A stretch of DNA of 64,000 nucleotides from Moniliella sp. 'wahieum' (taxonomy: Eukaryota): positions 1-64,000 of the forward strand of contig RSEE01000002.1 in the NCBI GenBank assembly GCA_003971905.1, written 5' to 3'. The position numbers and the translations under genes are program-made. The notes under the pieces were generated by a model. It had not been told where the DNA came from. It saw nothing but the letters and a program-made list of their open reading frames with translations, and searched no databases. Positions within the stretch are counted from its first letter, which is position 1. The number at the start of each line of letters is the position of its first letter. Shown piece after piece: positions 10,568 through 47,921 of the stretch.

Positions 10568-10632
10568 TGTCCCTATCTACTACGTTGCGAAACCACAGCC
10601 TAGGGATTGGGCTAGGCTACTACGGCGGGGCA
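10568..10632 (+). repeat. Isolated 65-bp 28S rDNA fragment (equivalent to 4093-4157) at the 5' end of the sister retroelement
   Basis: TGTCCCTATCTACTACGTTGCGAAACCACAGCCTAGGGA is an exact match; 61/65 identical overall. Confidence 0.92.
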
Positions 10633-11300
10633 CGAAGGTTTGTACGACGACGATGCGCCCTCGACAATGCGAGCGGTGCTCCCGCTTTGGGCATACGGCA
10701 CCGGTCTGCCAACAAGCGGCGACTGGGGGCAAGAAGTGCGGCCTGTGCCGCATCCCCGGCCACCGACGCGGCCAATGCCAAGACCTGATTGATGCATAGA
10801 TCAGGGCGATTGCTCGCAAGAAAGGGGTACCCCTGAGCAAGTCGAGTGCAGCGCAGAAGACGTCGTGGCCAACGGGCCGGAGCGAATCGGAGTGGCAGCA
10901 GCGGCTGCTGCGTTGGATGCGTCCCGGACAAGCGCGCGTGGTTCATCTGGAAATGAACGTGGTCGTGTTTACTACTCCCCCTCCGAGTCGGAGGGGGAGT
11001 CTTTTGGCGGCGGTCAACGCCAGCGAGGCCCGCGACAGGGACGATCGTGGTCGTGGGACGTCAATGGGGCCGGTGCGCCGGTCGACGCGGAGGGCAGCGC
11101 TCAACGCTGTCGTTGCCGAGGCGGCCTTGGTCCCCTTGCCTGGTGGATCCGGCGATGGGCTGGAGTCGGGCAAGGAAGGAGGGAACGGTGTGGGAAGCGA
11201 GGGGGGTGGATCTGAGGGCGAGGAGGCCGACAATGAGGGCGAGGGGGGCAGCTCGGGCGAGGGCGTGCTCGAGGCGGCCTCTGGTCTACCCCCCCCGTCT
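10633..11300 (+). pseudogene. 5' part of a sister CRE-like element (two CCHC knuckles, in-frame stop)
   Basis: TTMRPRQCERCSRFGHTAPVC...KKCGLCRIPGHRRGQCQDLIDA* aligns with TTMR...CGLCSRYGHVDAGC...KLCGVCHTPGHRRDQCQELVDQ; RRSTRRAALNA..ALVPLP aligns with RRSERRAAANA..AVPLP. 3' limit approximate. Confidence 0.85.
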
Positions 11301-12519
11301 AGCCCCTGGCGAAGCTCCTTCCCAGTGCAAAGAAACAGTGCCATGTTCACCAACGTCGCCTGGGGCACCATGCTAGCGGGGATGCCCTTGTGGAACATCA
11401 CATACGAGTCAGTATCAATAGGCGCCGACCAACGCGACCCTCGATGTTATTGTCTCGCCACTGTCCATCGCCGGCCTATCTACCTGCAACCCGCCAAGAA
11501 ACGGTTTGCCACTGCGTACGAGCGACTCTGGCATCAAAGTTGGGGCAAGTGGCCGCTGCAGCCCTTTTATGAGCCCCCATCGGCCCTCATACCGCCCTGG
11601 CCCAGCTCTGTCTAGAAGGACGCAACTGAGTGCCGATGACTATGCCCCGAATCAGCAATGGTTGGACGAACGGCTCTCCCCAGCCCTGGCGACTCTGGAT
11701 GATCTCAAGAAGCACGATCAAAACCACAATCTCTGCCATAGTGGCTGTCCTGGCTCGACTGTATCGGTACGTTCGATGACCCGTCCATCCGTTGGGATGC
11801 TCTTCTTCCTTCCTGGCACCCCGCCGCGGTAACAGGTGCGACGAAAGGGGGTGAAAGGAGAGAAACAGCGCGAGGGGGGCGACTTGCTAACCCGCACATC
11901 TCTCAGCAGGAGCAGATGGGCACCATCCCAACTCACACAACTGCGTCAGATGATGCACTACTCCCGTCTTGGTCAGCACGCCACGGGGGGGTGGGGACCA
12001 CAACGTGTTACAACAACTGGAATGATACGGAGGACCGACTGGCGTATCTGGCGCCCAAGAACGTACGTATAATGATGATCTTTTCAGGATCGTGACGCAA
12101 CCCCACTAGAAAAGGAACCGGAGGGGACGATATACTTACTGGATACACTTTGCCTTATCAGTTTGACCAAGCTTCGCAAGATGCCGAGCACTGGACCGCC
12201 AAGTTGTTTGTCGCCATGGAAGGCACTGCCCACCCCCCAAAGCAGCAGCTCCCTTGAATAATAGAGCTACCTTTGGCTGGAACACTATGCATGCTCAGTG
12301 TTGACTAGCACCTCCGTGCTTCATCCCTTGCCGCCTCATCTTCCTTTGCTCCAGCTACGAATGTTCCTCTTGACTGGGATACCCGGGCGTGGCAAGGCTG
12401 CCGTCGGCACTGTTCGCGTAGGACTGTCACTGCCCTGCTGGCCCACGTTGTGATGGCGGTACGTTACCCATGTTCTCTGGTACTGTCCAAATTACTGACA
12501 ACCAAAGCAGCTCAAACAC

Positions 12520-12870
12520 CGCACCAAGGAACCTGCCTGGATCAATACCCCTTTTCCAGGCATACGAGCGTACGCGGTGGTCTTGGAGGCACTGCACCAC
12601 TTGACGACGGGCATCTGCAGTGGCCAAGAAAGTACCCGCTCCACTCCCCCTTCGGTGGGGTCTGCTCGGACGATCCTGATTGCCATTTGGCCGGGCAGGG
12701 ACGTGCGAAGGGGGTGTCGGACCTGCATCCGGGTCTTTTAGCGGCCGGGCGCCGCCCCTACGGGATAGCCAGCTGGTTCTGGGCAACACAGCGGACGCCT
12801 TTAACGCCGTCTGCAGCGCTTCCGGCTGCAGTGCGGGTCTGGAGCGACTGCTGCTCGTGCGAAAGGGAGA
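12520..12870 (+). repeat. Diverged segmental repeat, paralogous to ~16870-17215
   Basis: Shared blocks such as ATCAAT(A/G)CCCCTT.TCCA, GCGTACGCGGTG, CCGTC.GCAGCGCT.CC.GCTGCAGTGC. Confidence 0.6.
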
Positions 12871-13554
12871 GACTAGGTTGGTAGTTTTTCTTGGCCGCAA
12901 GGAGAGATGTTAGGCGACACACAGCGAGCACCCCGACGAACAACAACAATCGACCGCCTCCGCGCTCGGCGTCCTCGCGGAGTCCGAGGAGCAGCTCGCA
13001 GGGCAACGCCATGGACATGGCTTCGACGCGAAGCAGCTGCAGAGCATGGTGCTGGGCGGGACAACGGCCAAGGGGGTAGCCAAATGGCTGCTGCGGCGGG
13101 GACAACGGGGACGACGTCGGTGAAGGCGAGAGGGGAGACGAGACGCGAGGGGAAGCAGGATGCGCGACCAAAAGGCGCACTGGGTACGCTGCGTGTCGGA
13201 TGGGCGGGTCGGTAGACAAGGCGCCGCTTGCTTGGTCCGCTGTGCTGCCGCGCGTGGCAAACGCCTACTGCTGTCCCCAAGAATCAGCGGCGTAGGTTGG
13301 TTCGTGGCCAGGTCCGGCCGGTAAGGACGGGCCAGCCAAGGCGGGGGTACGTGGGCCGGGAAGCCGCGCGCGGCGAGGGTCCAGTCGCGGGAGTGTGGTG
13401 CCGATGTGGGTGCGGGTGCCCCCCCCCGGCACCGCGCTGGGCCGATCGGTCTCGCGGCGAGCGTTGGGTCGTCGCGTTGCGGCCGCCGCGTGGTTTGGCG
13501 CGCCGACGCCGTTGCAATTCATCCACATTGGCTGCGGCCACCACCTACAACCCT

Positions 13555-13990
13555 AGCGCCGCGCTGAATTTAATCTCGTCGCGTCTGCGCGGCTTTTGCT
13601 TCTGCGCCACCAACCAGCACTGTCGGGCCGCTGCTGCAGCTCGCGTCCTAGCTTTTTCTCTCGCTGTGCACCAAGCCGGATGCGTGCTCATGAGAGGTGG
13701 CGTCCCTTGCTCCGCTTCTTGCTGCCCATCGGTATCCATGCAGCGCTCGATACCAGTGCACGGCTGGGACGAATCAGGCCTAGGCGATGGTCTGCAGCAG
13801 CATGCCGAGCAGGACACGCTGTTCCTTCACCCGCCCTCCTCGAGTCGTCGGTACAACGAACCGGCCTTGCCTGCAAACGTGAATCGTGTTCTTCCCGAAT
13901 CGGCCGCTTCTTTTCAAAGCGCAGTCGACACGATGCATAGCGGGATGCAAATCAACCTGAAGATGGCCCACCCATGGGGTCCTGACAACT
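13555..13990 (+). repeat. Diverged segmental repeat, paralogous to ~17435-17730
   Basis: Shared GCACCAA.CCGGATGCGTGCTCA and GTCGACACGATG...ATGCAAATCAAC...CCCACCCATGG. Confidence 0.65.
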
Positions 13991-14379
13991 GGATTCTGCG
14001 TGTGGTGGCAACGAGGGCGGCAGCAGGGATAGCCCGCTCCCCTTTTCTGGTCAGCACATGCCTCGTGCTCACCTCTCAGAGCCAGCAGCGCCCCAACCAA
14101 ACGCACACCACTCCCCGATGATTCCTTTCCTGGTACTTTCCGCCCTGCCATTTGCGTTGCTTCCCCACCTTGGCCAACGGCGGCGCGCCAGAACTTGACC
14201 TCACTCCCGATGGAGCGCCGACAGCCCGCTTGTATCGGTTTTAGTTGTCTCCCCAAATCGGCCGTGCTCGGGCTCCCAAGAGCAACCATTTGCTACAAAC
14301 CGGCTTGGTGGCAACTGGCGTGCCCAGGAGAAGTGGACCCATTACTCCTGGCATGGGTATGAGCTTTACCTTTGCAACG

Positions 14380-16460
14380 CGGGTGCCAACAATGACGACA
14401 TTCCGGTATTTTTGCCAGCAGTTGCACTGGTAAGGTGGGATTGGATATGGGGCCTTCCATTGCTGTGAGGCTGCTCGTCCCACTGCTTCCTCCATCGACG
14501 AGCGAGGCTGGGCTCATATCGCTCATGTCCCCCACCGCGATGTTGCGACCAAGACGGGGTTACGCTTCCATCAAGGTACACTGCGACGCGGCGTGGCATC
14601 TCGTCGTTCTGCTTCTGTTGCGTTTACATCCGCAAAAGCTGTCGCACCGCCGCCTTCCTTTCGACCTTACGGCCATGCGGAATTGCTAGACCTGCGAATC
14701 CTTTTTACGCTGTCTTGCGCGGCGTTGGTACCGCTATACCCAGTATGTGTTTCTCTGGTACGAAAGTACCCATGCCTTGCTCTACTGTGATATACTGACC
14801 AGTGCGCTAAACAGGTCCAAATTTATCTTGCCGGAAACGAATAGCCGATGAAAACAAGAAAGTCATCACCCCGCCATCTGCAGAGGTATCGCCTCCGCAC
14901 CAGATTCATCACCCCGCCAGGCAACGACAACTTCGGGTGGTGGCGGGGGGCTGCCAGGTCCTGCCGCCCTACGTGGACCGGGGACGTTTCCAATGAACAC
15001 AATGGGCACGTTTTGCAAGAGAGCTTGGGGTCTATTATAAGACGTGGATCGAACCATCGCCAGCGCATACCGCGACGTTGTGTCGATGAAGGAGACGCGC
15101 AACCGGAGATGGCCTCGGCTTGAGGAATGGGGGGCAGCATAGTGGTGTGAGACCAACAGAAGGAGGAGCTGTGCTACTATGGTCGCCCCTCAGGATGTAC
15201 CTAGTCGCGCTGCACACTTCTCTCGGTGATTACCCATCCAGGATGGGCCCAGTTCGCCAACTTTGTTGGTGTGGATGCCGATGCTTGTACGTGGTCCATC
15301 TTCTGTTGTGGCCCAAGTTGCTGACAGTTCTCATCGATCAAGCGCAGCACTGGAGGCAATAGGATCAGACGCGTCATGCAGCCCTCCAACTCGTCACGTC
15401 AACGCCCCCTCACCCAGTTGTTCAAAGCACCAATTGAGGGTATGCCGATACGGCACTTCCCTGTTGACCATCGGCGCTGCACCACCAGCCAAGGCAAGGA
15501 ATGCTTCACACCCCCGCAGGTTGTGCCTTAATGGAAGGCCCCCAGGTTGCCAACAAGGAGCACGTGCTGTTCGATGCTGTTCTGTTGTACTGGGCCATTC
15601 CGGACGCAGAAAACGGGTGCTGGGGGCGAGCGGCCACCGCGGGCTGCCATCCGCACAGTCACAGCACTTCGAAAAAAGATGGGGGTCGGCGGCGACAGGC
15701 TTGTCTGCTGCCAGAGAGCGCGTTTGTTGACCGAGCAGGCCGGCCAGCCGCAGTTCTCTGGCTTCACGCGTGCACGAGACCAGGCTCGTCGTGGCCATGC
15801 GGGGGATGATGGGCGCGCATCTCGAACCCCTGAAGAGGATGCAGATGGTGTGGTTAGCGTCAGTGAACCTCGCTCTCGATTGAATATTGACGATTGATGT
15901 GACGCTTGGCTCGCCGCGCTTGCCGTTCGGGTGGGCTGTCGACCACCCCCGAACCCGAGCCGTGTCGGAGTGCATCCTCAGCCTCGCATCTTCTGTCTGC
16001 CACTCCCTGATCATTCGCTACTCCCTCATCATTCACCTTTCCTCGTCCCCCTCCCCCGGCCGAGTGCGCACACGGCTAACTCCTGATATGCCTTTTGCGC
16101 TATGCCCTTGTGCATCCCACGATTTGGGCTGTCATCGTGATGGCCGTCGATGGGCCCGGCACAGTCAGTTGCCGAGTTGTCTCGTCCTGCCTGTCCGCAA
16201 CAATCACTGTCCCCGCGAGTACATGTGTACGACAGGTCGTAACCAAGAGACGCAAGGCGATGGGTATGATATCCCGTCAATCTGGTCTGGCTTAATGGTC
16301 TCCTTGCCATTTTGGACTCAAGTCAATCTAAGCTGTCTTGTTCGTGCTTGCTTGTACGTTACGTGCGCATCTAAGGTGCATCATCTGGGAAAGTCGTTAC
16401 TGGCACTGCATGCCGGGAGAGCCAAACACCGCCATTCATTCCTTGCGGCAGCCCGGCATA
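14380..16460 (+). repeat. Diverged segmental repeat, paralogous to ~21170-21900 and ~25467-27190, with pieces also at ~17750-18170
   Basis: Shared GGG(T/C)GC.AACA..G...ATTCCGGT, CTGGTAAG...ATGG.GCCTTCCATTG, TACTGACCAGTGCG.TAAACAG, GTGGCCCAAGTTGCTGACA, CTCCTGATA.GCCTTTTGCG. Confidence 0.75.
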
Positions 16461-18409
16461 TATCGCAGCGATTCCACCACACCGACGCCTCTGAACCCCA
16501 CCACCCAAGGAACATCATTCGCCACCAAACGGCCGTGAGGCGACTGCAGTGTTGGGGACTGGTTCCGCTATTATTCCAGTGCGGCGGCGCAGCTTCATGA
16601 GGCCCTGGTACTGTTTTCGTGCAGTGTTGTACACCTTGTCCATGCCCTACAAATGTGGTGCGATGTCGCCGCCGTTACCAACGATAGGACTAGCTGCTCC
16701 CGGTATGGGCGGTGTCACTGCAACACTTGTTCTGCACATTCGTTTTGACGAAGCTTGCTGGCTCGCATTGTGGTAATAGTACGTTGCCCCGCTCTCTTGT
16801 CCTCTCTTGCGACGCGAGTTACTGACAACCGACGCAGCACAAACGCAGCACCAGCAGTAGTTGGAACGAACGTGCTTGCCCAAAGAAACTGGCTGTATCA
16901 ATGCCCCTTATCCACAGCATGCAACGCGTACGCGGTGAAAGTGCAGGCACTGCTCTGCTTGCTGATGGGCAACTGCCCTCGTAAGGCAAGTGCTCGCACT
17001 ACTCTCCCCTATGTTGTACGGAAGGCCCGTGTTGGGCTTTGGGCAGCAAGGGGCTTGCAAAACCAGTGTCGGATGAGCTCCACCCGCCTGCTTCAGCAGC
17101 TGTGCGCCAGGCCTGTTTGGAAGCGACCTGGCCTGGCCAACACGGCGGGTTCCTTGCCTCCGTCGGCAGCGCTCCCTGCTGCAGTGCAAGTCCGCAGAGC
17201 TGCTGCTCATGACAGGGGAGGGGGGGCTGGGGTATGATATTCGTGGCCGCAACGGCAAACGGCGGCAGCAGACGCAAGCCGAGCAGCCCCGCAATCAACT
17301 GCAATCGGCCGCCTCTGTGCGAGACGCGCAGAATGGGCTCCTCCCTTCGCGGGGTTGACGTGCGTTTGCCGCTCGCTCGGCGCGCAGAAGTCCCTCCACA
17401 TTGGCCCACCGCCACACCTCCCAAGCCTAGCCCCGCGCTGGTTCTGGCCTGGCTGCGTTTGGGGCCGCTTTGCCTTACCACCACCAATACTCTGGGGCTC
17501 TGCTACGCCTCGTGTACTTGCTGCCTCTTCATCCTCCCCCTCTCACTGCGCACCAATCCGGATGCGTGCTCACGGGGGTGCACGCCCCTGGGCACCGCTT
17601 TTTGCTGTCCATCCTTGTCGATGCAGTACCCGAAGGCTGCGAGACGGCGGCTGCGTTACCGAGGTCGACACGATGTGCAGTGGTGGAATGCAAATCAACT
17701 TGGAGGCGTCCCACCCATGGTGTACCGTAACTTCGATTGTGGCGATTTCTGTACGTGTTCATACCCTTCTGCTGGAGCCCGAGTTGCTGACATTTCCCGT
17801 TAGCTGAACGCCGCTCCAGAGGCACGGTGCGCGCACTCCAGTAGCCCTTAACTCGTCACGTCGACATCCCCCCAGCCAGTTGTGCCAGGCGCCAATGCAT
17901 GGAATACTGGAAAAGGCAGCGCACATTTTACGCCCCTGCGGATGCGCCGGCAAGGAAGGCCTCTATGTCTGGCACAGGACAGATACTGCTCGGTGTTGCT
18001 CTGTTGTGCGGGACGAGGGCGCAGAAGACGCCTGGGGCGCGCGCGGCTGCCCTTCATCCCCCTCGTTGGACCCCTGAAGAGGATGGAGACGGGGGGGTAG
18101 TGTCATTGAGCCTCACTTTCGAGTGGATATTGATCATGGATGTGACGGCCTAGCTGGTCGCGCTTGCTGGTCAGGGGACCGGCGATCACCACCTAACGCG
18201 AGCTGTGTCCACGTGAATCCTCTGTTTAGCGCCCCACTGGCACCAGGGATGGGGCTCCATTGCGCCTCCCTTTGTTCACCCTTCCTCAATTCGCGGCCCC
18301 ACGCGTCCGCTGCGCCGCCCAGACCCACCGGCCCCTCTCCCAGAGTGACTGGTGTTCCTCAACAACGAAGTCGCATTCATCCCCACCCACAACTTGTTGA
18401 AAATGGGTT

Positions 18410-19110
18410 GAACACCTGGTCTGGTCCCAGCAGCAACCCCAAGCTCTTCCCGACGCACTCCCAGCGCAGACCGCAATGACTGCCACGACGCACAACGCTT
18501 CCACACAGCGAACGCATTCCTCACCTCAAGCTTGCTGCCGCCGACCGTCAGCACCTTTCATACTAAAGATGAAAACGATCATCCGCGCGGCCCTACTCAA
18601 TACCGGCGCCATGATTCGCTCTACTGGTTTTACATGTACGACGACGACCTCCACCCACATTTCCTCTGGGATGATGTACTGACCGACGCGCTTGTGCGGG
18701 CCGGAACGTACAGGCGCGGGTATGCAGAAGGGGATGGATAATCAAGAGTGTCCGAGCACTAAGGCAAGGACATGGGTCAAACCAGTTCCCGCTTTTCATT
18801 TATGTGGGAGATGTTAATGGCTCCTGTGGAAGCTGCCAAGTCATATGCTTCCAGGCCCCGTCTCGTCTGGGGGCCAATATCCGACTGCTGCATATTAGAG
18901 CCCTCTCCCCCCTCTTCTCCCAGAAGGGCATCAAGTCTAAGGCAGAGTGGGCCAGATTGTGCGTCTGCTGGACATTTGTTACAGAAGGCGATCGAGGCGA
19001 AGGGCCCGAGCGAACAAGAAGAGGTTCCAATGTGTATCGTGGATCGACTTCAAACACAGCTTACAAGATGTGCAAGCGCAACGCCATGATCGCGGTCTTC
19101 TGCATTGGGG
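18410..19110 (+). repeat. Segmental repeat, paralogous to ~21935-22677
   Basis: Long near-identical tracts CTCACCTCAAGCTTGCTGCCGCCGACCGTCAGC.CCTTTCATACTAAAG, GACGACCTCCACCCACA.TTCCTCTGG, TTACAGAAGGCGATCGAGGCGAAGGGCCCGAG. Confidence 0.85.
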
Positions 19111-19399
19111 CTAATGTGGGTCGGGTGCAGGGTGGGAGGGGGCAGCTGGCGGTGACAAGAGACGCGATCCGCGCGGTGCGTTGGCCGCTGCGTCGGCGCT
19201 CGTCGCTCGCAATGCGTTTGTCTGGGCGACGGAAAAAAAGCGGCTGACTCCCCTGACGCGGTCAAGTTGAACTTATTCCCTCTCCACCTTTCCATCACCA
19301 CCTTCTCCGCCTTGACCGCGGCCTGGAGGCCCTGGCGAATCATGTGGCCCCTGCCGTAGGCGCGTGAACGAGGCCAGCGTGAACTAGCGAAAAACCAAC

Positions 19400-21170
19400 A
19401 GCTCAGGTGCGCATGCGCTAAGCCAGGCAGTCGGTGTAGGCTGTGCTCAGCCCAATGTGGCAGCCGAAGCGGACCACCCGGCAGTTCCGATTCGGATCCA
19501 TTCGAGTGGTGGAGTGCGCTGTGCCCTCGCCGCCGGGCAGCACAATGGTGCGGTGTCGGTTCAAAGAGGCGGCCGGTCGATTGGGAAGAGCGTATTTAAT
19601 TTAGATCATCCCGACGATTATGCCGTGTTCAACCTGGTTGCCCTGTCGAAGGCGGGCTTGCGGAGGGGGCTCTTCGGCCGACGTTTATGCCATCCTCAAG
19701 ACCTGTCCGGAGATGGCTTGGCCGCCCGCTATGGAGAAGGGCTCTGCAGAGCGGTGGCGTTCCGATGATTTGACCCGTGCACACCGCCAGGTTAAAGAGG
19801 GCATGCTGGGGCGTGCGGCGCGTACGCTGCGTCCCGAGGATGCGGCGGTGGGGTTTGGGCCGGAAACGGTCGAGGCCCTGCGTGCGAAGCTGCAGACCCG
19901 AAGAACCCGCTTACTGGTTTGGTCGTTCGGCAAATGTCGGAGCGGGCCCCGCCTGGTTTAACAGGCGGCACCGCAGTGGTAGACGTCGGTGAGCCCCCAA
20001 TAGTTTTGGAGTTGGATGATAAGGACATCTATCGCGCGGCAAGCAGCTTCTCCCGGGACGCGGGGGGAGGCGTGGGCGGATGGTCGGTTCCTCTTCTCCA
20101 GCTGGCTCTGAAGCACGATGACTTTAAAGCGGCTCTCAAAGCCATGGCGTGCGTCATGTTTCATGGGACGTGTCTGGGTGCTCAATTGTTGTGCACCGGC
20201 AGGTTGCTTGCGAAGCCTGACGGTGGAGTGAGACCGATCGCCTGTGGTGAGCTACTTTACCGCGTAATGGCCAAGGCACTTCTTCATTTGGATGTGGTTA
20301 CTCCTCTGCTCCACACGCAGTTGGGCGTCAAGTCCAAGGGCGGGGTGGACAATTGTGCCGCTTATGGATCGTTTGGTTAGTGGGGCAGAGAGGGACCCGG
20401 CTTGGGCCAAGTTCAACTATGTGCTGTCGTTGGACTTTAAGAATGCGTTCAACTCGACCGACCGGGCAGCGGTGGCCCAGGAGGTGAGTGACTATTCGCC
20501 CGAGCTCCTTCCTTTCTTTCGTTGGGCTTATGGGAAGCACACCCAGTTGGTGTTGGGTGGTGCAGGCGGCTTTGGAACCCCCCTTAGCCACAGCAGGGGG
20601 GTGAAGCAGGGCGACCTCTTTGGGCCCTTCTTCTCTGTCGGCATCCGCAGCATGCTCGAGCAGGCACAGCGCGCGTTGGGCGACGATGGGTTGGTGGTGT
20701 CCTATTTGTACGCCACTTATGTATTGTCGCGCGTGCAATGCCAATGCGTTGCAGCTGGTCTCGCGTGTCGTGCGCAGAGCAAGACGGGGCTGGACCTCAA
20801 CCTGCGCAAGACGAAGACTGTCTCGACGCAGAAGTTGCGTCTGGAGGGCGGCACCTTCCTCGGCTCGTTCGTGGGTCCCAGGGCAGCTCGGCTCGCTTTT
20901 CTGCAGGCAAAGGTGAAGGCTCAGGCGGCGCTTTGCCCTTCCTTGCACGGGAAGCCGCTGCAGGACCGCTTGTTCTTGTTGCGCGTGGCTCTGCAGCAGA
21001 ACCTGCGGTACCTGCTCCGCTCGATGCGGACAGACGACCTGGCGGACCAGCTCCACCAGATCGACGAGCAGCGCTGGTGCGAGGTTAAGGCAATCGGGGG
21101 GGGGCGAATCCGAGCGAGGAGGACGGTCAGAAGTGGCAGAGTTCTTTTCTCTTGCCAGTCCGTATGGGTT
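19400..21170 (+). pseudogene. Decayed RT region of the sister CRE-like element
   Basis: AHRQVKEGMLGRAARTL, AASSFSRDAGGGVGGWSVPLLQLAL, AKPDGGVRPIACGELLYR, LDFKNAFNSTDR, GVKQGDLFGPF. The catalytic YLDD has decayed to YLYA. Homology breaks at the LP..GGLG motif. Confidence 0.92.
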
Positions 21171-22959
21171 CGGGCGCCAACAGTGGTGGCATTCCGGTTG
21201 GTTCTGTCCATAGCTACTGGTAAGGCGGGTTTGGATATGGCGCCTTCCATTGAAGTGGGACTGCTCGTACCCCTGATAAGACTGGGCTCATATCGCTCCT
21301 GTCCCCCAGGGTGGCGCGGTGGCCAAGATGGAATCGACGTTGTGATCAAGGCACACCTTAAGCGATCTGGCATATCGTCGGTCCGCTTCTGTTACATCCG
21401 GCAACCTCTCTCGTCCCCACCGCCTTGCCGCCCTACCACCACGCCGGATTGCCAGGCGTGCCAATCCATTTTCACACTATCATGCTCGATGTACCGACTA
21501 TCTGTTCATCAGGTACGAAGCCACCCAAGCCTTGCTGTGTTGTAATGTACTGACCAGTGCGTTAAACAGGTACGAATACACTAGGTGGCTAACCGATGGA
21601 AAAGCAAGTCATCGCCCCGCTCTCTCCAGAAGTATCGCCTCCGCATCAGATTAAAACACCCGCCAGGCAACGACAACCCCGGATGGTGGTGGGGCCGGTT
21701 TGCGAGGGCCCGCCCAACGTTGACCGGAGAGCGCTGCAGATGAAAACAACGGACAAGCGCTGCAAGAACCTGAGGTGCAAGATAAAGGAATGGATCGAGT
21801 CATTACCAGCTTCGGCCGCGATCGATGTAGTGCATGAAGCAGAGGCTCCGCATCTGCAGGTCGTCTCGCCCAAGCCCAGGAATGTTGGTCAGAGATACAA
21901 CATGGAAACCGCATTGATCCCCACCCATGGGGTCGAAGTCTGGCCTGGTTCCAGCACCAGGCCCAAGCCCTTCTCAGACGCACTCCCCTCGTAGACCGCA
22001 AAGGCCTCTACGATGGTCAATGCCTTCCACATGGCGAATGCATTTCTCACCTCAAGCTTGCTGCCGCCGACCGTCAGCGCCTTTCATACTAAAGCCAAAA
22101 ATGATCATCCGCACGGCCCTATTCAATACTGGCGTCATGATTATTTCTACTGTTTTATATGTACGGCGACGACCTCCACCCACACTTCCTCTGGTATGAT
22201 ATACTGACCGACGCGGTGTGCAGGCCGGAACGTACAGGCACGGGTATGCAGACGGAGATGGATGGTCAAGAGTGTCCGAGCACTACGGCAAGGACATGGG
22301 TCAAACCAGTGCCCTCTTTCATTACGTGGGAAATGTTAGTGGTCCGGCATCGCTTTACACTTGGCCATCCCTCAACATGATGACGCTGTGGAAGCTGCCC
22401 AGTCATATGCTTCCAAGGTCCGTCTCGTCTTGGAGCCAATATCTCCACTGCATATCAGAGTAACCCCCCCTCTTCTCCCAGATGGGAATCAAGTCCAAGG
22501 GAGAGTGGGGCAGATGGTGCGTTGGCTGGGCACTTCGTTACAGAAGGCGATCGAGGCGAAGGGCCCGAGAGTAAACAAAAAAAAACGGTTCCAATGTGTA
22601 ACGTGCCTCGACTTAAAACACAGCGTGCAAGATGTGCAAGCGCAACGTGCCAAGATCGTGGGCTTCTGCATTGGGGATAGTATCACCTGACTGATGATCT
22701 TGCGAGTCAAGAATGTGGATCAACCAAACTCGCTACCCCTGCTTAAAACCCCTCCCGTGCGTTGCCCCACCGGGTTCAGTTTTTCATTTTCGGTTCGTGC
22801 TTGCAGCAACTCCTCCGCCATCTGTTTCGCTCGAGCGGAGAAAGGATCTGGCACGGGCCAAACTCCCCTGGGTAGGTGAGCAGCAATGACACGAGGCAAG
22901 CCATCCGGGACGACAATCGGGGCAATGTGGACGGTCAATGGTAGGGCCAAGTTGGCATC

Positions 22960-23770
22960 CCGATGCCCGTTGGTTTAGGCAGATCGGTCTTGCTCTCTCG
23001 TCTTGGCTTTGCTCCACAGGCCAAGGCATCGGCTTGCGTAGAGAGGGGAATGTATTGGCGGACGAGGTCAACGGCCGTCATGAAGGGGGATCCGGGCCGC
23101 TCATCGACATGGCGCATGGAAAAAACGACGGTTTTGCTCGCCCGCCAGGATACGAAGCTGCTGCCTCCCGTGACTACACTGCTTCGCTCCTGGCTCATCG
23201 AAAAGCAGAAGTGCTCGACCAGAGCTGGAGGACAAGGTGCCCTCTAATCCAGGGTTTACTTTTCTTGGCCACGGGGTCATGGCTGGGTTGCGGGACATTG
23301 CTGGGTTGCGGGACATTGCGGCCACTATGGTAGAGCCCGACCCATCCAACAATCCGGAGCGAATTGGACGCCCCACACCACTGTCGCCCGCGCTCAGATC
23401 ACGATGGCGAAAGCAGGTGCTCCAAAGAACCCATCCATATTGAACGGCCTAACTCTTTGGTCATTCGGGGACAAGATGCGCGACGCCTATCCTAGGCCGT
23501 GTCTGCCATCCACTCGTTGCCGCCCCTCCGGCACACGCGTTGTGCAAGAAGGAGATGATCACCTTGTTCGACACGGAGGCCAAAGCAAAGCACCAACGTA
23601 CAATCCTTGTCCAACGGGTTCCTAGCTCTGTTCCCTTGGTCTTCCCTGCAGGTGTGACTACGCCTGTGGTTAGTCCAGGGCTGCTTTTGGCACACTGCCA
23701 GGGAGAGCAAGCGTTGGTTGTCATTCCTTATTCGCCTTGCCGCTCGGACTCTTGCCTGTGCGAGCAATGG
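22960..23770 (+). pseudogene. Decayed C-terminal (thumb/RLE) region of the sister CRE-like element
   Basis: AEVLDQSW, PSNPGFTFLGHGVMAGL, LTLWSFGDKMRDA, KKEMITLFDTEAKAKH, VPLVFPAG, LACASNGI are colinear with AEALNRTW, PSTPALTLPDHEVMAGL, LTFWSFGNKTRDA, RKEMDVFVETAAKDKH, VPLVFTAG, LRCAVQGM of the 28S-inserted element. Confidence 0.85.
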
Positions 23771-23822
23771 TATACCTGCCGACCATGTTGCAAAACCGCG
23801 GCCTGGGAGCCAGGCTAGGCAT
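23771..23822 (+). repeat. Degenerate 28S fragment (equivalent to 4093-4144) at the 3' end of the sister element
   Basis: TATACCTGCCGACCATGTTGCAAAACCGCGGCCTGGGAGCCAGGCTAGGCAT vs TGTCCCTATCTACTACGTTGCGAAACCACAGCCTAGGGAACGGGCTAGGCAT: 37/52 ungapped, mismatches mostly transitions. Confidence 0.72.
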
Positions 23823-24438
23823 TGCGGTGCTTTGGCCCAAGAATACAAGACGAGCAAGATGCGTATCCGCAGAACGTTCTGGACTGCGTGCTCTACTTTG
23901 GCCACCAATGTGTCCAAGGCATCTTGGTGTACGGCTCCTCGGCTAGTATTGCAGTGCGTCCAGTCAAATTGTGTGGTGGCCTCTTTTTGCTCTGACATTT
24001 GGCGTAAGGAGGTGGCTCGAGCCATCAACCTCGCCATCAGGACGCCTGTGAGAACGTGTCAGTACCCGAAAATGATGAGGTCCGTTCCAGACCCCCGTTC
24101 CCGTCACGCTGCCGATTGCCAAAGCTGGGCCGGAAGTAGCCAGCCAGCGTGGTGGACCGGGTGCGTCCCAAGACCTGGTGGGTGGATGAAGCCTTGTGTC
24201 TGTCGTCCGTGCTTGCGGGGTATGTTTGTGTGATGGTCGGCTCTGACTCGCGACGTGAGGACCGCACTCACGGGTTCCCCGCGGTTTTCTTCGTACGTTC
24301 ATCCCCCCAAACAGCCGGTTGGCATGGAATGCATGAGAACCACACCCTACCCGACTGTTGTTCGTCTCGTCTACGCCCAAGAGCGAGGGGAACGAGGCGA
24401 TGGTGCGTAGTGGGATGTTGATCCCGTCTCTGGGCGGG

Positions 24439-25466
24439 ATGTGGGTCGGGTGCAGGGCGGGAGGGGGCAGCTGGTGATGGCAGGAGACGCGATCCGAGCG
24501 GTGCTTACCGAACCGGTTCGTCTGGGCGATACAGGCGGCGGGGGTCACCGGTCGCCGGTCACGGTCACTGGTCACCGGAGCAGGATTGAATATGGGTTGC
24601 ACGATTGAAACTTGAAACGATCCTGTGGCGAGTGAACCAACAAGCCGCTGGCGCCTCCTGACACGGCCAATTGAACTGAGTCCTTCTCCATCTTTCCACC
24701 ACCTCCTTCTCATCCGCCTTGCCCACCGCCTGGAGATCGTGGCGAATCATGTGGCCTGCCGTGGTGCGCGTGCCCGCGGCACGGTGGGAACTTGCGTAAC
24801 ATCGCCAGCTGCTATGCCAGGCAGTTGTGGCCTCAGCCCAAACTTGCGAACGAAGCGGACAACCTGGCAGTTCCGATTCAGGCCCATTCGAGTGGTGGAG
24901 CGCGCAGCAGCCTCGCGCCCTGGCAGCACGATGGTGCCACGTCTATTCAAGCGGGCCGCGGGTCTCTTGGGAATTACCTATCTAGATCATCTCGACGATC
25001 GCGATGCGTTTAACCTGCTTCTTCCGAAGGGGGCTGGCAGGGAGGCTCCTCGTCGACGTTTGCGCTCCCTCAGGGGCGATCCCGAGGAAGCCTGGCCACC
25101 AGCATCGATGATTTGGTGCGTGCGCACCGCCAGGTCAAGGAAGGCGTCCTAGGGCGGTCGGCGCGCACGCTGCGTCCCCAGGACGCGGTGGTGGTGGGGT
25201 TTGGGCCACAGGCGGCTCTGCGCCCGCGTTGCACGGGTTGCCGCTGCAGGACCGCCTGCTTTGTTACGGGGGCTCTGCAACAACTATTCAGAATCTGCCC
25301 CGTACAATGAGGGCGGAGGATCTGGCGGACCAGCTCCAGCAGATGGACGAGTAGCTCTGGCGTGATCTGAAGGCAATCCGGGAGGGGCGGATCCGAGAGT
25401 GATGCGGCGTCAGAGGTGGGGACAAAGCTCTCTTCTCCTTGCCACCGTAAGGGTGCCTTAGGCTTT
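24439..25466 (+). pseudogene. Further CRE-like relic with the RT core deleted; duplicate of the 19114-21170 block
   Basis: PGSTMVPRLFKRAAG, AFNLLLPK, RAHRQVKEGVLGRSARTLRPQDA, then a jump (~25208) to the LQDR...RWDKALFSLP region. Upstream DNA 24439-24780 matches 19114-19380. Confidence 0.85.
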
Positions 25467-28400
25467 TGGGTGCTAACAGTGGTTGTATTCCGGTTGCTTC
25501 TATTCAAGGCACTGGTAAGACGGGGGAGATGGTGCCTTCCATTGCAGTGGTCCTGCTGGGATCCCTGATGCGACTGGACTCATATCACACCTGTCCTCCG
25601 CGGTGGTGCTGCGGCCAAGATGGGGTTGGCGCTTCCATCAAGGCACTCTGTGAGGCGGTGAGGCATCTCGTCAGTCCGCTTTTGGTTCCTGTTCTCATGC
25701 GACAAGCCGATGGCACCACCTCCTTCGTTTCGGCCATACGGCAACCCCAAAGGGAGAGACGTGCCAATGCAGTTTCCCTCTTTTCTTCTAATCCATTGAT
25801 GTTCATCATATGCGGAACCACCCAACCCTTGCTCTCCAGTGACGTACTGACCAGTGCGCTAAACAGATACCAATACGCTAGGCGCAGGAGAATAGCCGAT
25901 GGATTAAGCAAAGTGATCGCTTCCCTATACTCAGTGGCATTTCCTCGCCACGATCAAACACCCCTCCAAGCAATGACAAGCTCGAATGGTGGCGGGGCAG
26001 GTTGGGCAAGAGCCGCTGTCTACGATGACCGGGGGCGTGGGTGGTGAGAGCAACGGACACGGCGTTGAAACATATCGAGGACCATTACGAAGATGTAGAT
26101 CAAATCTTGGCCGGCTTCTGCCGCGACCTGGTGCCGATGAAGAAGGAATCGCGCACCTGCAGATCGCCCCGCTCAAGCCCGAGGAATGTGGGTCAGACAT
26201 GGGGGTGTGCGGCCAACAGGATGAAAAGTTGTGCCGCTGCGGGTGTCCTTCGTGATGCGCTTGCCCGCGGTGCCCGCATCTTTGGGCTTACCGGACCAAG
26301 AGGGCCCAGCGCGCCAATGGTGTTGGTGGAGATACCTGCACTGGTTCGTATCCTTCTGCCGTGGCCCAAGTTGCTGACATTATATTGGCCAGACGCAGTC
26401 GGAGCGTCTACATTCGTGCAGCTGTTGCGACAACAACGTCCCTCGGCAGTCGTGCGCAGCGCCAAAGGAGGGAGTGCCCCCACTGCGCGCTTTGGCCAGA
26501 GGCAGCACCACTGCCAAAGGCAAGGCACACTTTTCACTCCCCGCGACTGCGCCAACACGGAAGGCCCCGAAGTTGCTGCTGAGGAGCAGAGGCCATCCGA
26601 TGCCGCTCTGTTGTGTCTGCCCGTTATCCCCGTGCCCGTAGAACGGATCCGGGACGCGAGGAGCTGTGAGCTGTGATAAGGTAAAGCTTCAGCTTCGCAT
26701 CTTCTGTTTACCACTCGCAACAGGGCTGTTTCCCGTTGCTCCTCTCCTTGTCCCCGATGCCTCCACCCTCAGCCCCCTCCGGTGGCGCTAGGCCGGATGC
26801 CCACACGGTGAGCTCCTGATACGCCTTTTGCGGTATACCCTTGTGCAGTCAACGATTTGTGCTGTCACCGGCCCAGTCAGTTACCGAATTGTCTCGTTCT
26901 GCCTGTCCCGAAAAATCACTGTTCCCGCCAGCGCCTGTGCACCGCAGTTGTGACCAAGAGAAGCAGGTCGGCGGGTATACCAGCTGCTAATCTGGTCCAT
27001 CTTCGTGGCCTCCGTGCCATTTTCGACCGAAGTGGGTATATGCTGTTTTGCCCGTGTGCTTGCGTGTGCATTACGTTCGCATCCATCTAAGGTGCCTCAT
27101 CTTGGAGAACTCGGTGCTGGCACCGCATCCCGGGAAAGCCAGGCATGTCCGTTCATCCCATGCGGCTGCTCGTTGTATATCGCCGATCCCCGCGGGTTAA
27201 GCGAGCGGCGAAAGAAGTGGGGGGATACGATGGCAAAAAGGCGTCCAACCGCGGCGCAGGTTTGGTGAATGGCGTGCCCATCTCATTGTCGTTCCCCCTG
27301 GTCAACCTTCCATTTGTGCCATCATCATCGACATCATCATCTCGGCAAAGACCACGCCACCGGTCAGTCCCTCACCATCTTCCGCATCTCGTCAACAAGT
27401 GAGCAGGATGGGGACTGCCCCATTCACATCAGCTGTAAGCAGTTTCCTATTGTCCCTCTTTCGTTATGGCTACTACCCAGCCCCAGGGTCAACCCGCGCG
27501 CATGCCGGAGCCCACGCATCACATTACCTTTGCCCAACGCCAGCCACATGTCGCGCTTTCCCGCGCCTCTTCCCTCCAAAGCATCCTCCCATCTGCTGGT
27601 CAGTCATTCATCGCCTGTGTTGAGGTGGGAAGGTCTGTGGCGCTTGGTCCACACGCTGCAACTCTCCCCGTATTAGGGTGCCGACTTGTGGTTATACCGA
27701 CTCTCTTCGTACGTGTGATTATAATTTAACTTCCTCGTGCAGATACTGTCTTGTGGATATATTGTGGTACTAAGGAAAGCGACTCGGGTAGTGTTTCCGC
27801 GGCAAGCATCCGGTGTCAGGAAACGTGAGATGGGGGAAAGGGAAGCAGATAGATTGTGGATACATCTATGGACAGACTGGAGGCAGTCGAGAGGTGAACA
27901 CAGGATCTCCGAACGGATAGGAACCACATCACAGTGTCCATACAGGTCTACTACTAATGGGACAAGACCCCCTAGCACAGCGTGAGAGTCTGACACCCGG
28001 ACAATGCATACTTCACCGTCGATTGCATGACCTCCGTATCCACAGAACTGGCCACATAGGCAGTATCCTTTCAGGGCACGCACGGGGGCAGTATTTAATT
28101 CCCCCCGTAGCCCTTGTACTGGGCTGCTGTCTTCCCCCCCATAAAGCAATGCACGCCCCCATATGCTCCGACTCTCCTACATCTTCTCTTGCGTACTCCG
28201 AGACCCCGCCCCCACCGTCCACACCATTCAACAGCTACACCTCACAGTACAACCCATCTTTACACACTCTCACTTATGCTCAACCACCCATGACCCCGCC
28301 GCCGCTCTCGGTCCAGATGTATTCTCCTCTACCTTCTACACTTCGTGCTAATACCCACATGTACGTCGCACCAATAACCGTGGAGGAGCTGCGGTGTTTC

Positions 28401-29161
28401 CCTCTGCACCGTTGGCCATATATGTGGGACAAGACCGAGGCGATCAGCCATAAACACACACAGTCTCAAGAAAGGGAACGAGGAGTTTAACGATCATATG
28501 TTTACGAGAAGGCTTTTGCGGCCAAGTTGGCCCATTCCTCGCAGCGTCCGTACCGTCCCGCCTCCCAGTCCTTGGCCGTATGATGCGACACGGAAGGATT
28601 CAGTCCCGGGGAGGTGAAGTATAGGAGACGGTAGCGTTGGGCGAGAAAAAGGGCAGCTGTTTGGGCTGGCCGCCAGTCTGGTTGAGATTGAGCGGCATAG
28701 GTTCATGGTGTGTCCACGGGGCCATGCATTCGAGTAGGCCTCTCCCGTGATGGCATACTGGTTCCAGATGTGCTTGAAGAGCGATAGGAATGGTGCGCCG
28801 AACCAGTCAGCTTGCCGCGGCTCCACCGTTGGGCCAGGGAGGGTGTGCACGTTGGACCGACCGCCCGTGGAACCATACGACAACTTAGCATAGAAAAAAG
28901 AGTGGAAAAGAAAGTGAATTTGCCGTTTGATCCCCTCTCCCCCATTCATCTGTTGCCTCTCTCTGTTACGGAACCCCCCCTGTAAGGGTCCGACTTTGTG
29001 GATATACTAACCCTTTTCCGATGACTTGTGCGTATACCAACCCCTGCAGATGCTGACTTGTGATATACTGTTCAGCCAGGCCACCTGGGCAGAGTGTCTT
29101 CCGGCAACGCGCGAAGTAGTGTTCGATTCCCCCTGTATCCATATACTCTACCACTACCATC

Positions 29162-29296: not shown

Positions 29297-29489
29297 CCTA
29301 CAGCTGCTCTGATCCCGGCTCGATAGCGTAGTGGTAACGCATCCCTGGCCAATAAGCGATGACATGGGTTTGATTCCCATTGGAGCCTCTCTTTTCCTCA
29401 CTATTTCCCCCGGGTTGTGTCTTCTCACACTCGGTGCCATTATTCTGTCTGCACCCTCCACCTCTCAAGATGCACCCCCGCGCTTGTAC

Positions 29490-29608: not shown

Positions 29609-32199
29609 CTGTATTCTCCTCTGCTCCGGCTGCATTTCTGCCCACACATCCCCCGTCCAGAGCTTCATTGCGTTCTAAGGTACCCATCCCCACGGCCCGC
29701 CACATAAGCAGCTATACACCATATGTACCTCCCAACAGCCCCATGGCGCTTCTGCCCACACGACCGACCCCAGCACCTCTCCCCCGCCCTTACTCTCCGC
29801 CCAGCAGTTCGCCTACCCACCCTCTTCCATTGGAACTGATACCACTTGGATAGAACACCAGCCATATACTGGATCAATACCGTTTTCCCTTAAGCGTTGT
29901 TATATAGTATGGGGGGGATCTATTCCCACCCTACTGCCGCATAAGCCCGTGCACGCGTGTATCTGCCGGGTTGGCGCATCACAATTGGTCTGGTGTACTA
30001 CCGGGCTGCCCTTTACCCCTCCACCGCCATCGGCACGTATGCCGAACCAATGTTCCGGCCAGCACTTTCAGCATGTTCGTTAGGCCAGCTTACTGCGGCT
30101 GGACGACCAATGTAGGGCCTTTCGAGGTACCGTGGGTGCAGCTCCGGCTTGATTGGCCGGAGACGGTGCTCAATCCCCTCTCACTCGAAACAAATGGTAT
30201 ATGGAGGGGTGCCCACAGGGATGTTCAATTGCAGGAAGGCTGTTGGGCCGTTCCATCCTCACAGCCGCTGCGTTCAACTCTTGGTCTCAGCCCGGCGCGA
30301 AGCATTGAGACCATCCTGGAAAACGGCATGGGCATTACAACTAATGTGCAACTCACTAGCATCGACCCAAACTAGTTGGGAGGACAAGAGGCTTCGCTAC
30401 AACCTGGGTTCACTCTGAGCTTCTAGGAAGAGGGAGGTAGTATACTCTTTAAGAAACACCATCACCACTTGGCCACGCAGGTTTCCTCTGCACTACGTTT
30501 TCCTTATCGACACATAGACAACACGATGGCCAATGTGCCCTTGAGCCTTGCTAGCACATCGTCGGGTCCACTTTCTTTATTCTGTCACCCCGCGAAGGTG
30601 CACCGTTTCCGTGCATGTTTTCAACGGGGTGTGGGGCTACGTGCGATATGGGGATTCCCTGGAGGGTCATTCGTATGTTTGCCACTACCTTCAAACGCCG
30701 GCGAAAGGAATGCTTGATGTTCGATTACTGCCTACCTGGCCTTCTACTTTTATGCCATCTCTTCCAAGAGGCAACGCCCCTCTAAGTGGAATTTCCTTAG
30801 GGGCTGGTATAGTGAGACATAGCTTTCGATGCGCATCTCAGTGCTTCATCCCGTGCAGCCCATCTTCCTTGTGCCAGCTGCGGATACAGTCGTCTGCCTG
30901 TCATTATGTATGGCAATGCTGCTATCATCTTTGTTCTCTTGTGGCCCTTATACTGTTTGTGTGCAGTGTTGTACCATGTGCATGCCTCAAGAAGGTGGCC
31001 CGACGTCCCCGCCGCTCCCAACAATGCGATTAGCTGTTACCGAGATTTATGGGCGGTATCTCTGCAATACTTGGTGCGCACATGCGTTTCGATGAAGCTT
31101 ACTAGCCTAACGGCCATGCCCAAGTACTTTGTAGACGTGTCCATGCACTTTCACGATATCCTGTGCGACGTCGGCGCCGCTATACTTACTAGATATCATC
31201 CCCGGTGCCACTAGCTGCCACTTTCTCTCTGCACCAGATTAAAGGAAGCTGATGAGCCCCGCATGTCGTAGACATCTCATCCAATCACGCAGCAGCTTCA
31301 GTCCCGTTAGACTAGCGAGAGAGAGCCAGAAGGAACCTTATCCATGCCGCGGATACTTTCACTAGCGCTTGCTCTTCTTAGGACTCCGTCTGATTCTGCC
31401 GACTACAGCGCGCCGAGTTTGGTGACACTGCCGGTCGCAGCGTTATCGGTCACCCGGAGCGCCTGGATCGAGGATCCCTTTTCAACTGGTCTAACGATCT
31501 ACGTACGCGGCTCCTACCTCGGAGGGTCCTAGCTGCGGCCTTTCCACGAAGGCAACAGTCACCCAAACTAGAGGTATAAAGCAGGACCTAACGTACGTAA
31601 CTCTAATGCCATGTCCAAGGGCTTTCACCCCCTAAATTGAGGGGTCGAGCTCCGTCTCGGGCTCGCCTCATGAAAGGACCTCTGGACAAAAGACTCGAAA
31701 CTAGTAGCCTGCCGCACTGGTGTGTGCGCCCGGTATATGGCCAACAAAAGGGACGTCTGAGGTGTGATGCATCATGGCTGTACATTTCCTCGAATGCCGC
31801 CGGCCGCTTCGGCCCGGCGCCATGACCAAGTAGAGCGTCTATATCAGTTAGTACATATGGCATTGTGGGACCCCGTCTACTACTAACTATCATAGCCTAG
31901 AATCCACATGTCTGCCGTCGTGGTCACTGTACACGAGGAGACGCGCCAGAGCATCATTTTTACTAGAGTAGGTGCCAGGCCCTGGAACGATCTATAATAG
32001 AGTGGTAGGACAACGAGGGGCAGCACGTCAAGTTGTGCTCGAGCACGAGGTGCAGGAGAGAGATGAACGTTGAACACGTTAACAAGAGAGGGGTATAGTA
32101 GTACACTAGTAGGGGCACAAAACGCAGGTGCAGGGTATATACGAGTTGGAGAAGGAGAAGCCGGCGACCAAGTTACAGTACCTGTTGGCCTACCCTTGG

Positions 32200-47834: not shown

Positions 47835-47921
47835 TTCCCCAACCGGAGTCGAACCCGGGTCTTCACGGAACAGCTGCTGGAGCTTGAAAGCGTGACATCA
47901 TAGCCGTTGGACCATTGAGGA
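47835..47921 (-). tRNA. tRNA-Glu(TTC) with a 16-nt intron
   Basis: Minus strand TCCTCAATGGTCCAACGGCTATGATGTCACGCTTTCA[AGCTCCAGCAGCTGTT]CCGTGAAGACCCGGGTTCGACTCCGGTTGGGGAA, then poly-T. One C appears missing from the T-stem. Confidence 0.9.

Follow-up and report, generated by a model that had tools for sequence, protein, structure and literature searches.

Results

The same 28S segment heads two LINE copies

The DNA analyzed here, a stretch of 64,000 nucleotides (contig RSEE01000002.1, positions 1 to 64,000) that we call the window, opens with a eukaryotic ribosomal DNA (rDNA) unit whose 28S gene is split by a long interspersed nuclear element (LINE) that we call el1. Beyond the 28S gene lie decayed remnants of a sister subfamily of el1, and the same piece of 28S, 4093-4162, heads two separate copies, designated A and D. 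We refer to these 28S pieces as tags. The initial annotation of this DNA had described 10568-23822 as a single sister element with a ~65-bp duplication of 28S 4093-4157 on either side. The features on which the comparison rests are as follows.

1-1446: 18S rRNA of the eukaryotic rDNA unit that opens the window
1535-1689: 5.8S rRNA of the eukaryotic rDNA unit
From 1815, ending near 9378: 28S rRNA, split by el1 at 4795/4796 and resuming at 8815
4093-4162, + strand: source segment of the sister tags in the window's own 28S; its start is the R1 bottom-nick position
4796-8814, + strand: el1, 4.0 kb, with a CCHC-knuckle start (ATG at 4858), a reverse transcriptase (RT), and a C-terminal restriction-like endonuclease (RLE)
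10568-10637, + strand: tag of copy A, 65/70 identical to 28S 4093-4162, ungapped (61/65 over 10568-10632, which corresponds to 4093-4157)
23771-23822, + strand: tag of copy D, 37/52 identical to 28S 4093-4144, ungapped, with a degenerate continuation to ~23845 (~4161-4164)

The two 28S fragments are real, and both derive from one segment. A 52-mer of the segment, slid over both strands of 9301-64000, matched at 48 positions at 10568, at 37 at 23771, and at no more than 28 anywhere else. The more degenerate fragment also exceeded its controls: tag D reached a local alignment score of 22, compared with 12.1 +/- 1.4 for shuffled sequences (n = 200, maximum 18) and a maximum of 15 among 74 real 1-kb tiles. 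The refuting outcome named in the initial annotation, a 3' match no better than shuffled controls, thus did not occur. The identities first reported for the two fragments (61/65 and 37/52) were reproduced, the former now extending to 65/70. The tags have in common their left limit, 4093 (within 4 to 6 nt in D), and their right limit, 4162 (within 2 nt). The left edge of tag D is fuzzy, in that its local alignment begins at 4097 and two of its four initial bases match, so that the claim that both fragments start at the same base holds to within about 4 to 6 nt. Tag A is 93% identical to the 28S and tag D 71%, which indicates that copies A and D differ in age. These results support a link between 28S 4093-4162 and the sister subfamily and point to a past in the rDNA.

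The left limit coincides with a landmark of the 28S gene. Published comparisons are drawn here from passages of the papers cited by PMC number. In the R1Bm cleavage-product markers, the bottom strand is nicked before TGTCCC and the top strand after CTACT (PMC1919474), and the bottom nick therefore falls at 4092/4093 in the window's 28S. The sequence TGTCCCTATCTACT occupies 28S 4093-4106, and the R2 site AAGG/TAGC lies at 4032/4033, across which the 28S is unbroken; both sites had been placed correctly at the outset. The window's single 28S gene is likewise uninterrupted at 4093/4162, with no sister-subfamily insertion there.

These limits bear on two explanations in which the tags are incidental. 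In the first, the tags would be products of chimeric cDNA synthesis, the enzyme having switched, as reverse transcription ended, from the element RNA to mature 28S rRNA, and they would say nothing about the target. L1-U6 chimeras are the model for such a template switch onto an abundant RNA, and the tag indeed lies in the sense orientation, directly 5' of the element untranslated region (UTR), with no further 28S. Random switching should yield different segments, however, and here two separate copies share both limits, in a segment that starts at a known LINE nick position; we consider a chimera quite unlikely. In the second, the element would have hit a pre-existing short 28S-like spacer fragment. 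Copy A does lie in the spacer, ~1.19 kb past the 28S 3' end, and a 22-bp copy of the R1 target in the spacer of D. ananassae provides a precedent (PMC2718515). Two unrelated sites would be needed, each with a fragment that starts at the same base and ends exactly at the element start, and the explanation is accordingly very improbable.

The interval between the tags holds several old insertions

Remnants of the element were located by comparing uninterrupted pieces of the el1 protein (tblastn) and a family profile with the six-frame translation of the window. The pieces are listed below in order of position.

10638-11126, + strand: copy A, a 5' fragment only, with a 15-nt UTR, ATG at 10653, knuckles, and weak el1 collinearity to ~11126
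18360-21896, + strand: tandem-duplication unit II, paralog of 21898-26200 without the 22682-24436 segment
18872-19113, + strand: C', an RT fragment that resembles el1 6830-7015 and is paralogous, within unit II, to the beginning of copy C
19476-21155, + strand: copy B, the sister RT core, with 46-69% amino acid identity to el1; homology ends at el1 7726
21898-26200, + strand: tandem-duplication unit III, which contains copy C, the second 28S tag, and copy D
22467-23762, + strand: copy C, a 5'-truncated 3' part with internal deletions, corresponding to el1 6867-6972, 7393-7712, 7979-8064, and 8219-8674
22682-24436: segment present only in unit III; unit II has lost it, and the resulting joint shows TGGG microhomology
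23823-23874, + strand: 5' UTR and ATG (23859) of copy D, aligning to el1 4815-4866
24805-25447, + strand: RT remnants of copy D, which is paralogous to B but has lost the RT core

The zinc-knuckle open reading frame (ORF) annotated at ATG 10653, after the first fragment, was borne out. Its frame contains two C-x2-C-x4-H-x4-C knuckles (10665-10826) and an in-frame stop at 10797-10799, and it is 52% identical in protein sequence to the knuckle region of el1 (tblastn E = 4e-16). No RT or RLE remnant was detected between 11 and 19.6 kb or past 27 kb with the family profile (six frames, i-E < 0.05).

The RT and endonuclease remnants that follow are organized by a tandem duplication. DNA self-comparison showed that 18360-21896 and 21898-26200 are adjacent tandem paralogs with 69-79% identity. 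In unit III, el1-collinear homology crosses the left edge of the 22682-24436 segment without a break (22621-22951 corresponds to el1 7393-7712); this continuity, together with the TGGG microhomology in unit II, indicates that unit II suffered a deletion. In unit III this segment holds the tail of copy C, the second 28S tag, and the 616 bp that follow the tag.

Copy B changes frame at 19898 and 20350, and the RT active site that reads YLDD in el1 reads YLYA in copy B (20700-20730), indicating that copy B is catalytically dead. Copies B and C overlap by ~860 bp in el1 coordinates (B extends to 7726 and C begins at 6867) and thus are not one copy. The endonuclease region of copy C is decayed but recognizable (tblastn 23380-23733, E = 3e-7, 29% identity), and the DNA of its tail, 23629-23762, corresponds to el1 8536-8674, with none of 300 shuffles reaching the score. 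This agrees with the earlier report of a decayed RLE C terminus just upstream of the second fragment, the el1-like homology running to 23762. The RLE catalytic residues were not readable in the decayed copy C, and the RLE piece, used as a query, found no match among longer proteins or solved structures.

The stretch after the second tag, 23825-23874, aligns to the el1 UTR and start codon at a score reached by 5/2000 shuffles and 2/2044 real tiles; the corresponding stretch of copy A aligns to the el1 UTR at a score reached by 8/2000 shuffles and 8/3288 tiles. The ATG is offset from the tag start by +85 in copy A and +88 in copy D. Farther downstream, a weak collinear tblastx chain joins el1 4889-5906 with 23886-24745 (summed E = 0.002) and leads to the copy D RT. 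The second tag, being followed by a 5' UTR and ATG, is therefore the head of copy D, and because B is a DNA paralog of D, it is this tag, not the first, that heads the B RT. Past the tags, A and D showed no match to each other: the local DNA alignment halts at the tag, a permissive score is met by 230/300 shuffles and 213/266 tiles, there is no identity at a fixed offset, and the score of the post-tag comparison is met by 226/2000 shuffles. Copies A and D are thus not recent duplicates, and the head of copy D is supported through el1 and not through A.

These results demonstrate that the interval is an element graveyard: a single sister subfamily of RLE LINEs inserted there at least three times long ago, and tandem duplication and deletions further scrambled the copies. 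One 13-kb sister element at 10568-23822, arising from a single insertion with a ~65-bp duplication of 28S 4093-4157 at both ends, would account for two real fragments in the same orientation that start at or near the same 28S base, and for the collinear order of knuckle, RT, and endonuclease. Against it, el1 is 4.0 kb and its relatives encode ~1000 amino acids, whereas the interval spans 13.3 kb; it contains duplicated RT pieces with overlapping coordinates; the tandem duplication continues past the right border; the right fragment is followed by the UTR and ATG of copy D; and the outer flanks are not 28S. We regard the single-element account as scarcely tenable.

Repeated blocks of unassigned sequence surround the element remnants (12436-16475, 16756-18222, and 25468-27190), each present two to three times at 61-77% identity and without a Pfam or family-profile match; more broadly, the 125 ORFs of 9.2-30.7 kb gave no Pfam match. 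In both B and D, one repeated block directly follows the RT. Dispersed repeats (9699-9900 with 28192-28402 and 16595-16762 with 30937-31106) tie the spacer beyond the 28S to ~28-31 kb.

el1 is flanked by a long duplication of a different 28S segment

el1, the reference for these comparisons, lies between two copies of 28S 4544-4795, the second at 8815-9065 (252 bp, 96.4% identical). The two subfamilies are thus tied to different 28S segments, 4093-4162 for the sister copies and 4544-4795 for el1, as had been proposed. The el1 duplication is composite. Across 4566-4790, the two copies differ at two places in 225 bp (an indel in a T run at 4610 and a substitution at 4748), and the 22 bases that adjoin the el1 3' end (4544-4565 versus 8815-8837) contain six differences. 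The fresh duplication of el1 may therefore be ~225 bp, preceded by an older 28S-like stretch of the element tail.

The el1 frame is broken by at least three frame changes (7190, 7714-7744, and 7863-7871) and a stop at 7826-7828. All 14 C-terminal positions that are invariant across the aligned family are kept in el1, among them C, C, H, C, H, E, R, D, D, and K; these positions carry no database label, and we take them to be the RLE motif by comparison with the R2 literature. That every endonuclease residue is kept and the duplication is nearly identical despite the frame breaks suggests either very recent decay or assembly indel errors in G+C-rich runs. The el1 5' UTR weakly resembles 28S 4130-4164 (58/2000 shuffles and 29/1482 tiles reach the score; p ~0.02-0.03).

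Junctions of the tags

The upstream flank of tag A contains neither 28S nor an element 3' end: 49/50 shuffles scored as well when 9200-10567 was compared with 28S 1815-4795, and 137/300 and 251/300 shuffles scored as well when the copy C and el1 tails were sought. No further 28S was found past ~23822-23845 after tag D, where copy D follows, and the flanks of A and D share no similarity. The 52-mer scan revealed no third tag, including between copy C and its upstream flank (at most 28/52 elsewhere). The window contains one head-to-tail joint, composed of the C tail, 8 bp, the tag, and the D head. Copy C stops 8 bp before tag D at el1 8674, 90 bp short of the el1 stop codon and 140 bp short of the el1 end; because the last 140 bp of el1 have no counterpart in C, the joint between C and the tag is not clearly an authentic 3' junction.

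Such a joint could have arisen by R1-style double insertion. Nicks at 4092/4093 (bottom) and 4162/4163 (top) would generate a 70-bp duplication, and a second copy would enter the duplicate at the resident's head, so that the tags would be target DNA; the array would then have left or outlived its 28S gene and decayed. The arrangement fits in that the el1-like tail of C ends 8 bp before the tag and D begins right after it. The 28S gene that holds the long duplication of el1 (225 bp with two differences) is a real one, R1 copies are documented to enter the duplicated target at the heads of residents, which yields arrays with rDNA spacers of 14 bp or 33 nt and with 5'-truncated members (PMC2718515, PMC5932611), and long duplications occur in RLE LINEs, with 126 bp for R9 and a median of 900 bp for Dualen (cited in PMC9977147). 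Against double insertion, the well-kept tag A has neither 28S nor an element tail upstream, copy C has no tag upstream, C lacks a stop codon and 3' UTR, so that its joint with the tag may be no true 3' junction, and only one junction of this type occurs in the window. We consider double insertion possible but rather unlikely.

An alternative is that a ~70-nt 28S tag (4093-4162) is carried in the element RNA and marks the 5' end of full-length sister copies. We favor this reading, tentatively and at somewhat less than even chances from the sequence at hand, because tag A, though barely decayed, breaks off at 4093 next to unrelated DNA, and copy C has no tag before it. That both tags share left and right limits also supports an RNA-borne tag, as does the weak likeness of the el1 UTR to 28S 4130-4164.

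Placement of el1 and its sister subfamily

The RTs of el1 and copy B place both in the RLE-bearing supergroup of retrotransposons that lack long terminal repeats (non-LTR elements of the R2/CRE/NeSL type), and el1 additionally has the C-terminal CCHC and RLE residues. The el1 5925-7744 and B 19674-21104 regions match a profile built from 19 relatives (412.7, 178.9, and 229.0 bits); the Pfam model RVT_1 gave 25.6 bits on el1, under its cutoff of 29.6. The APE endonuclease/exonuclease/phosphatase family was absent from 10 relatives, seven el1 frames, and the 125 ORFs mentioned above.

Matches at E <= 1e-3 numbered 3290 representative proteins, with 42% identity for the best, and these are single ORFs of ~1000 amino acids; RVT_1 was the only Pfam domain in each of the 10 relatives examined. 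The closest solved structures are R2 proteins (9nl3 and 9dou; E = 3e-5 to a family member). Proteins of this family (~1000 amino acids with zinc finger, RT, CCHC, and RLE) are common on 3-5-kb environmental contigs, and the few named relatives are hypothetical proteins of two basidiomycete (tremellomycete) yeasts.

In a quick IQ-TREE run with 94 rows (92 of the 150 listed database matches, those with at least 150 residues covered, and two window pieces), el1 and B formed a clade with an SH-aLRT of 99. The tree thus supports the B RT as the probable closest relative of el1 among these 94 rows, in line with the relationship first proposed for the RT at 19.4-21.2 kb and the 28S-inserted element.

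None of 79 related metagenome loci has similarity to the window's rDNA, and an Rfam scan of 20 of the 79 gave no matches. Among 22 related loci with flanks, flanking direct repeats were found in three loci and measured only 14-32 bp. With none of 79 loci near rDNA, the wider family, as far as sampled, does not share rDNA residence, which would be specific to a small lineage.

The rDNA unit and its surroundings

With gathering thresholds, the Rfam match to 28S ended at 9198; a permissive run matched the final 100 LSU model positions to 9280-9378, moving the 28S end ~180 bp later. The remaining 54 kb of the window contains no second rDNA unit, so this unit lies at the edge of an array or is an orphan. 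Matches to tRNA occur downstream of the element graveyard at 29317-29388 (+ strand) and 47835-47921 (- strand).

Discussion

A proposed 28S tag carried in the element RNA

The reading that we favor would have the following steps. The sister subfamily would have resided in 28S, with its 5' junction at 4162/4163, and the element RNA, read through from rRNA, would have retained 70 nt of 28S from 4093. The tag would then be part of the mobile unit and would be reverse-transcribed into each full-length copy, and copies outside 28S genes would thus keep it. At insertion, the tag could pair the cDNA with the target, in the manner of a homology arm, and prime second-strand synthesis. In a 28S gene cut at 4092/4093, the tag would resemble a 70-bp duplication. 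The joint of C, tag, and D would be a head-to-tail joint produced either by insertion of C against the tag of D or by template jumping.

Melanogaster-type R1 and many R2 lineages behave in this way with shorter tags. R2 keeps 28S sequence on the 5' end of its RNA, and annealing of the cDNA to the target is the role proposed for it; cleavage of R2 RNAs occurs as far as 36 nt upstream in 28S, and in some lineages the 5' ends have fixed 21-26-bp 28S duplications with substitutions, which became part of the element 5' end as proposed for the tag here (all PMC3774820). Like the elements in this window, R2 is an RLE-type single-ORF element that is co-resident with 28S. It differs in its target, in that the R2 site 4032/4033 is unused here, el1 lies at 4795/4796, and the sister tags are 4093-4162. 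It also differs in its N terminus, which has CCHC knuckles here, most relatives showing C2H2-like motifs. R2 further differs in the length of its 28S sequence, the tag here being twice as long as those described in the passages of PMC3774820, and no HDV-like ribozyme match was found here at permissive Rfam thresholds.

The arrangement of the copies is closer to that of R1 in Drosophila, where copies are separated by a short 28S piece from the same nick position (PMC2718515, PMC5932611), ectopic full-length copies have 5' 28S sequence (PMC2718515), and 5'-truncated head-to-tail members and later DNA-level amplification, including outside rDNA, are seen (PMC2718515, PMC5932611). The 5' ends of full-length R1 copies outside rDNA carry upstream 28S sequence, 7-28 bp long (PMC2718515). 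R1 and the sister family differ in enzyme and coding structure, R1 having an APE endonuclease and two ORFs and the sister family a C-terminal RLE and a single ORF. The R1 tags or spacers are 14, 33, or 7-28 nt, compared with 70 nt here (PMC2718515, PMC5932611), and the ectopic R1 tags lie upstream of the R1 site, an orientation to the site that is not the one here (PMC2718515). The host probably also differs, the divergent rRNA suggesting a non-arthropod. With R1Bm, the sister tags share the bottom-strand nick as their left limit; R1Bm differs in endonuclease class, and the right limit of the tags lies 56 bp past the R1 top-strand nick (PMC1919474). Of the features of the R1 clade (APE, two ORFs, and the 14-bp duplication TGTCCCTATCTACT), none is present here, and the nick position alone is shared.

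A third comparison is with RLE-bearing LINEs that have long target-site duplications, R9 of bdelloid rotifers (in 28S) and Dualen-4b of Chlamydomonas (PMC9977147). el1 shows the R9-like pattern, a single copy within a 28S gene that has the same long segment on both flanks (252 bp, of which 225 are near-identical) and 28S sequence running on outward. The sister subfamily does not, as its outer flanks are non-28S and its tags belong to different copies. Taken together, the 28S-tag picture is a variant of known rDNA LINE behavior.

Several observations weigh against an RNA-borne tag. No sister copy inside a 28S gene is seen in the window, so the home site is a presumed one. No derived substitutions common to tags A and D were seen, so that long inheritance of the tag is at most presumed. 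At 70 nt, the tag is about twice the longest R1 or R2 tag in the passages of PMC2718515 and PMC3774820. The resemblance between the el1 UTR and 28S reaches a p of only ~0.02-0.03. Rfam gave no ribozyme match (9200-27500 at E <= 5; 4780-5300 at E <= 10), and folding of the 5' regions did not exceed that of shuffled sequences (z = -0.30 to +0.60). Divergent ribozymes can escape Rfam models. The tail of copy C lies up against the tag's first base, which is expected of a true 3' junction at 4092/4093. Finally, el1 has a real long 28S duplication within a 28S gene; long duplications may thus be the insertion mode of this lineage, which favors double insertion.

A more specific form of the RNA-borne tag can be envisioned, in which a selectively maintained 70-nt arm of 28S 4093-4162 heads the RNA and guides second-strand priming at the phosphodiester nicked by R1, and el1 keeps a decayed relic of the arm in its UTR after a switch to the 4795 site. 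We hold this version to be speculative and on balance doubtful. If it is true, 28S insertions would only mimic a 70-bp target duplication, and the R1 site would have been reached by convergence in a non-animal lineage of RLE LINEs, which shifted between 28S sites while dragging its old arm along.

Implications

Site-specific LINEs serve as the model system of target-primed reverse transcription, and efforts are under way to engineer them for safe-harbor gene insertion; 5' end joining is the least understood step of LINE insertion. Two old sister copies with the same 28S piece at their heads support an rDNA past for this subfamily, and not the clean second target and 65-bp duplication first proposed. 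A long 5' arm derived from 28S, or a 70-bp staggered RLE cut at the R1 position, would, if true, provide a natural test of homology-guided 5' joining, and either mechanism would offer a test case for target-site switching within the rRNA gene.

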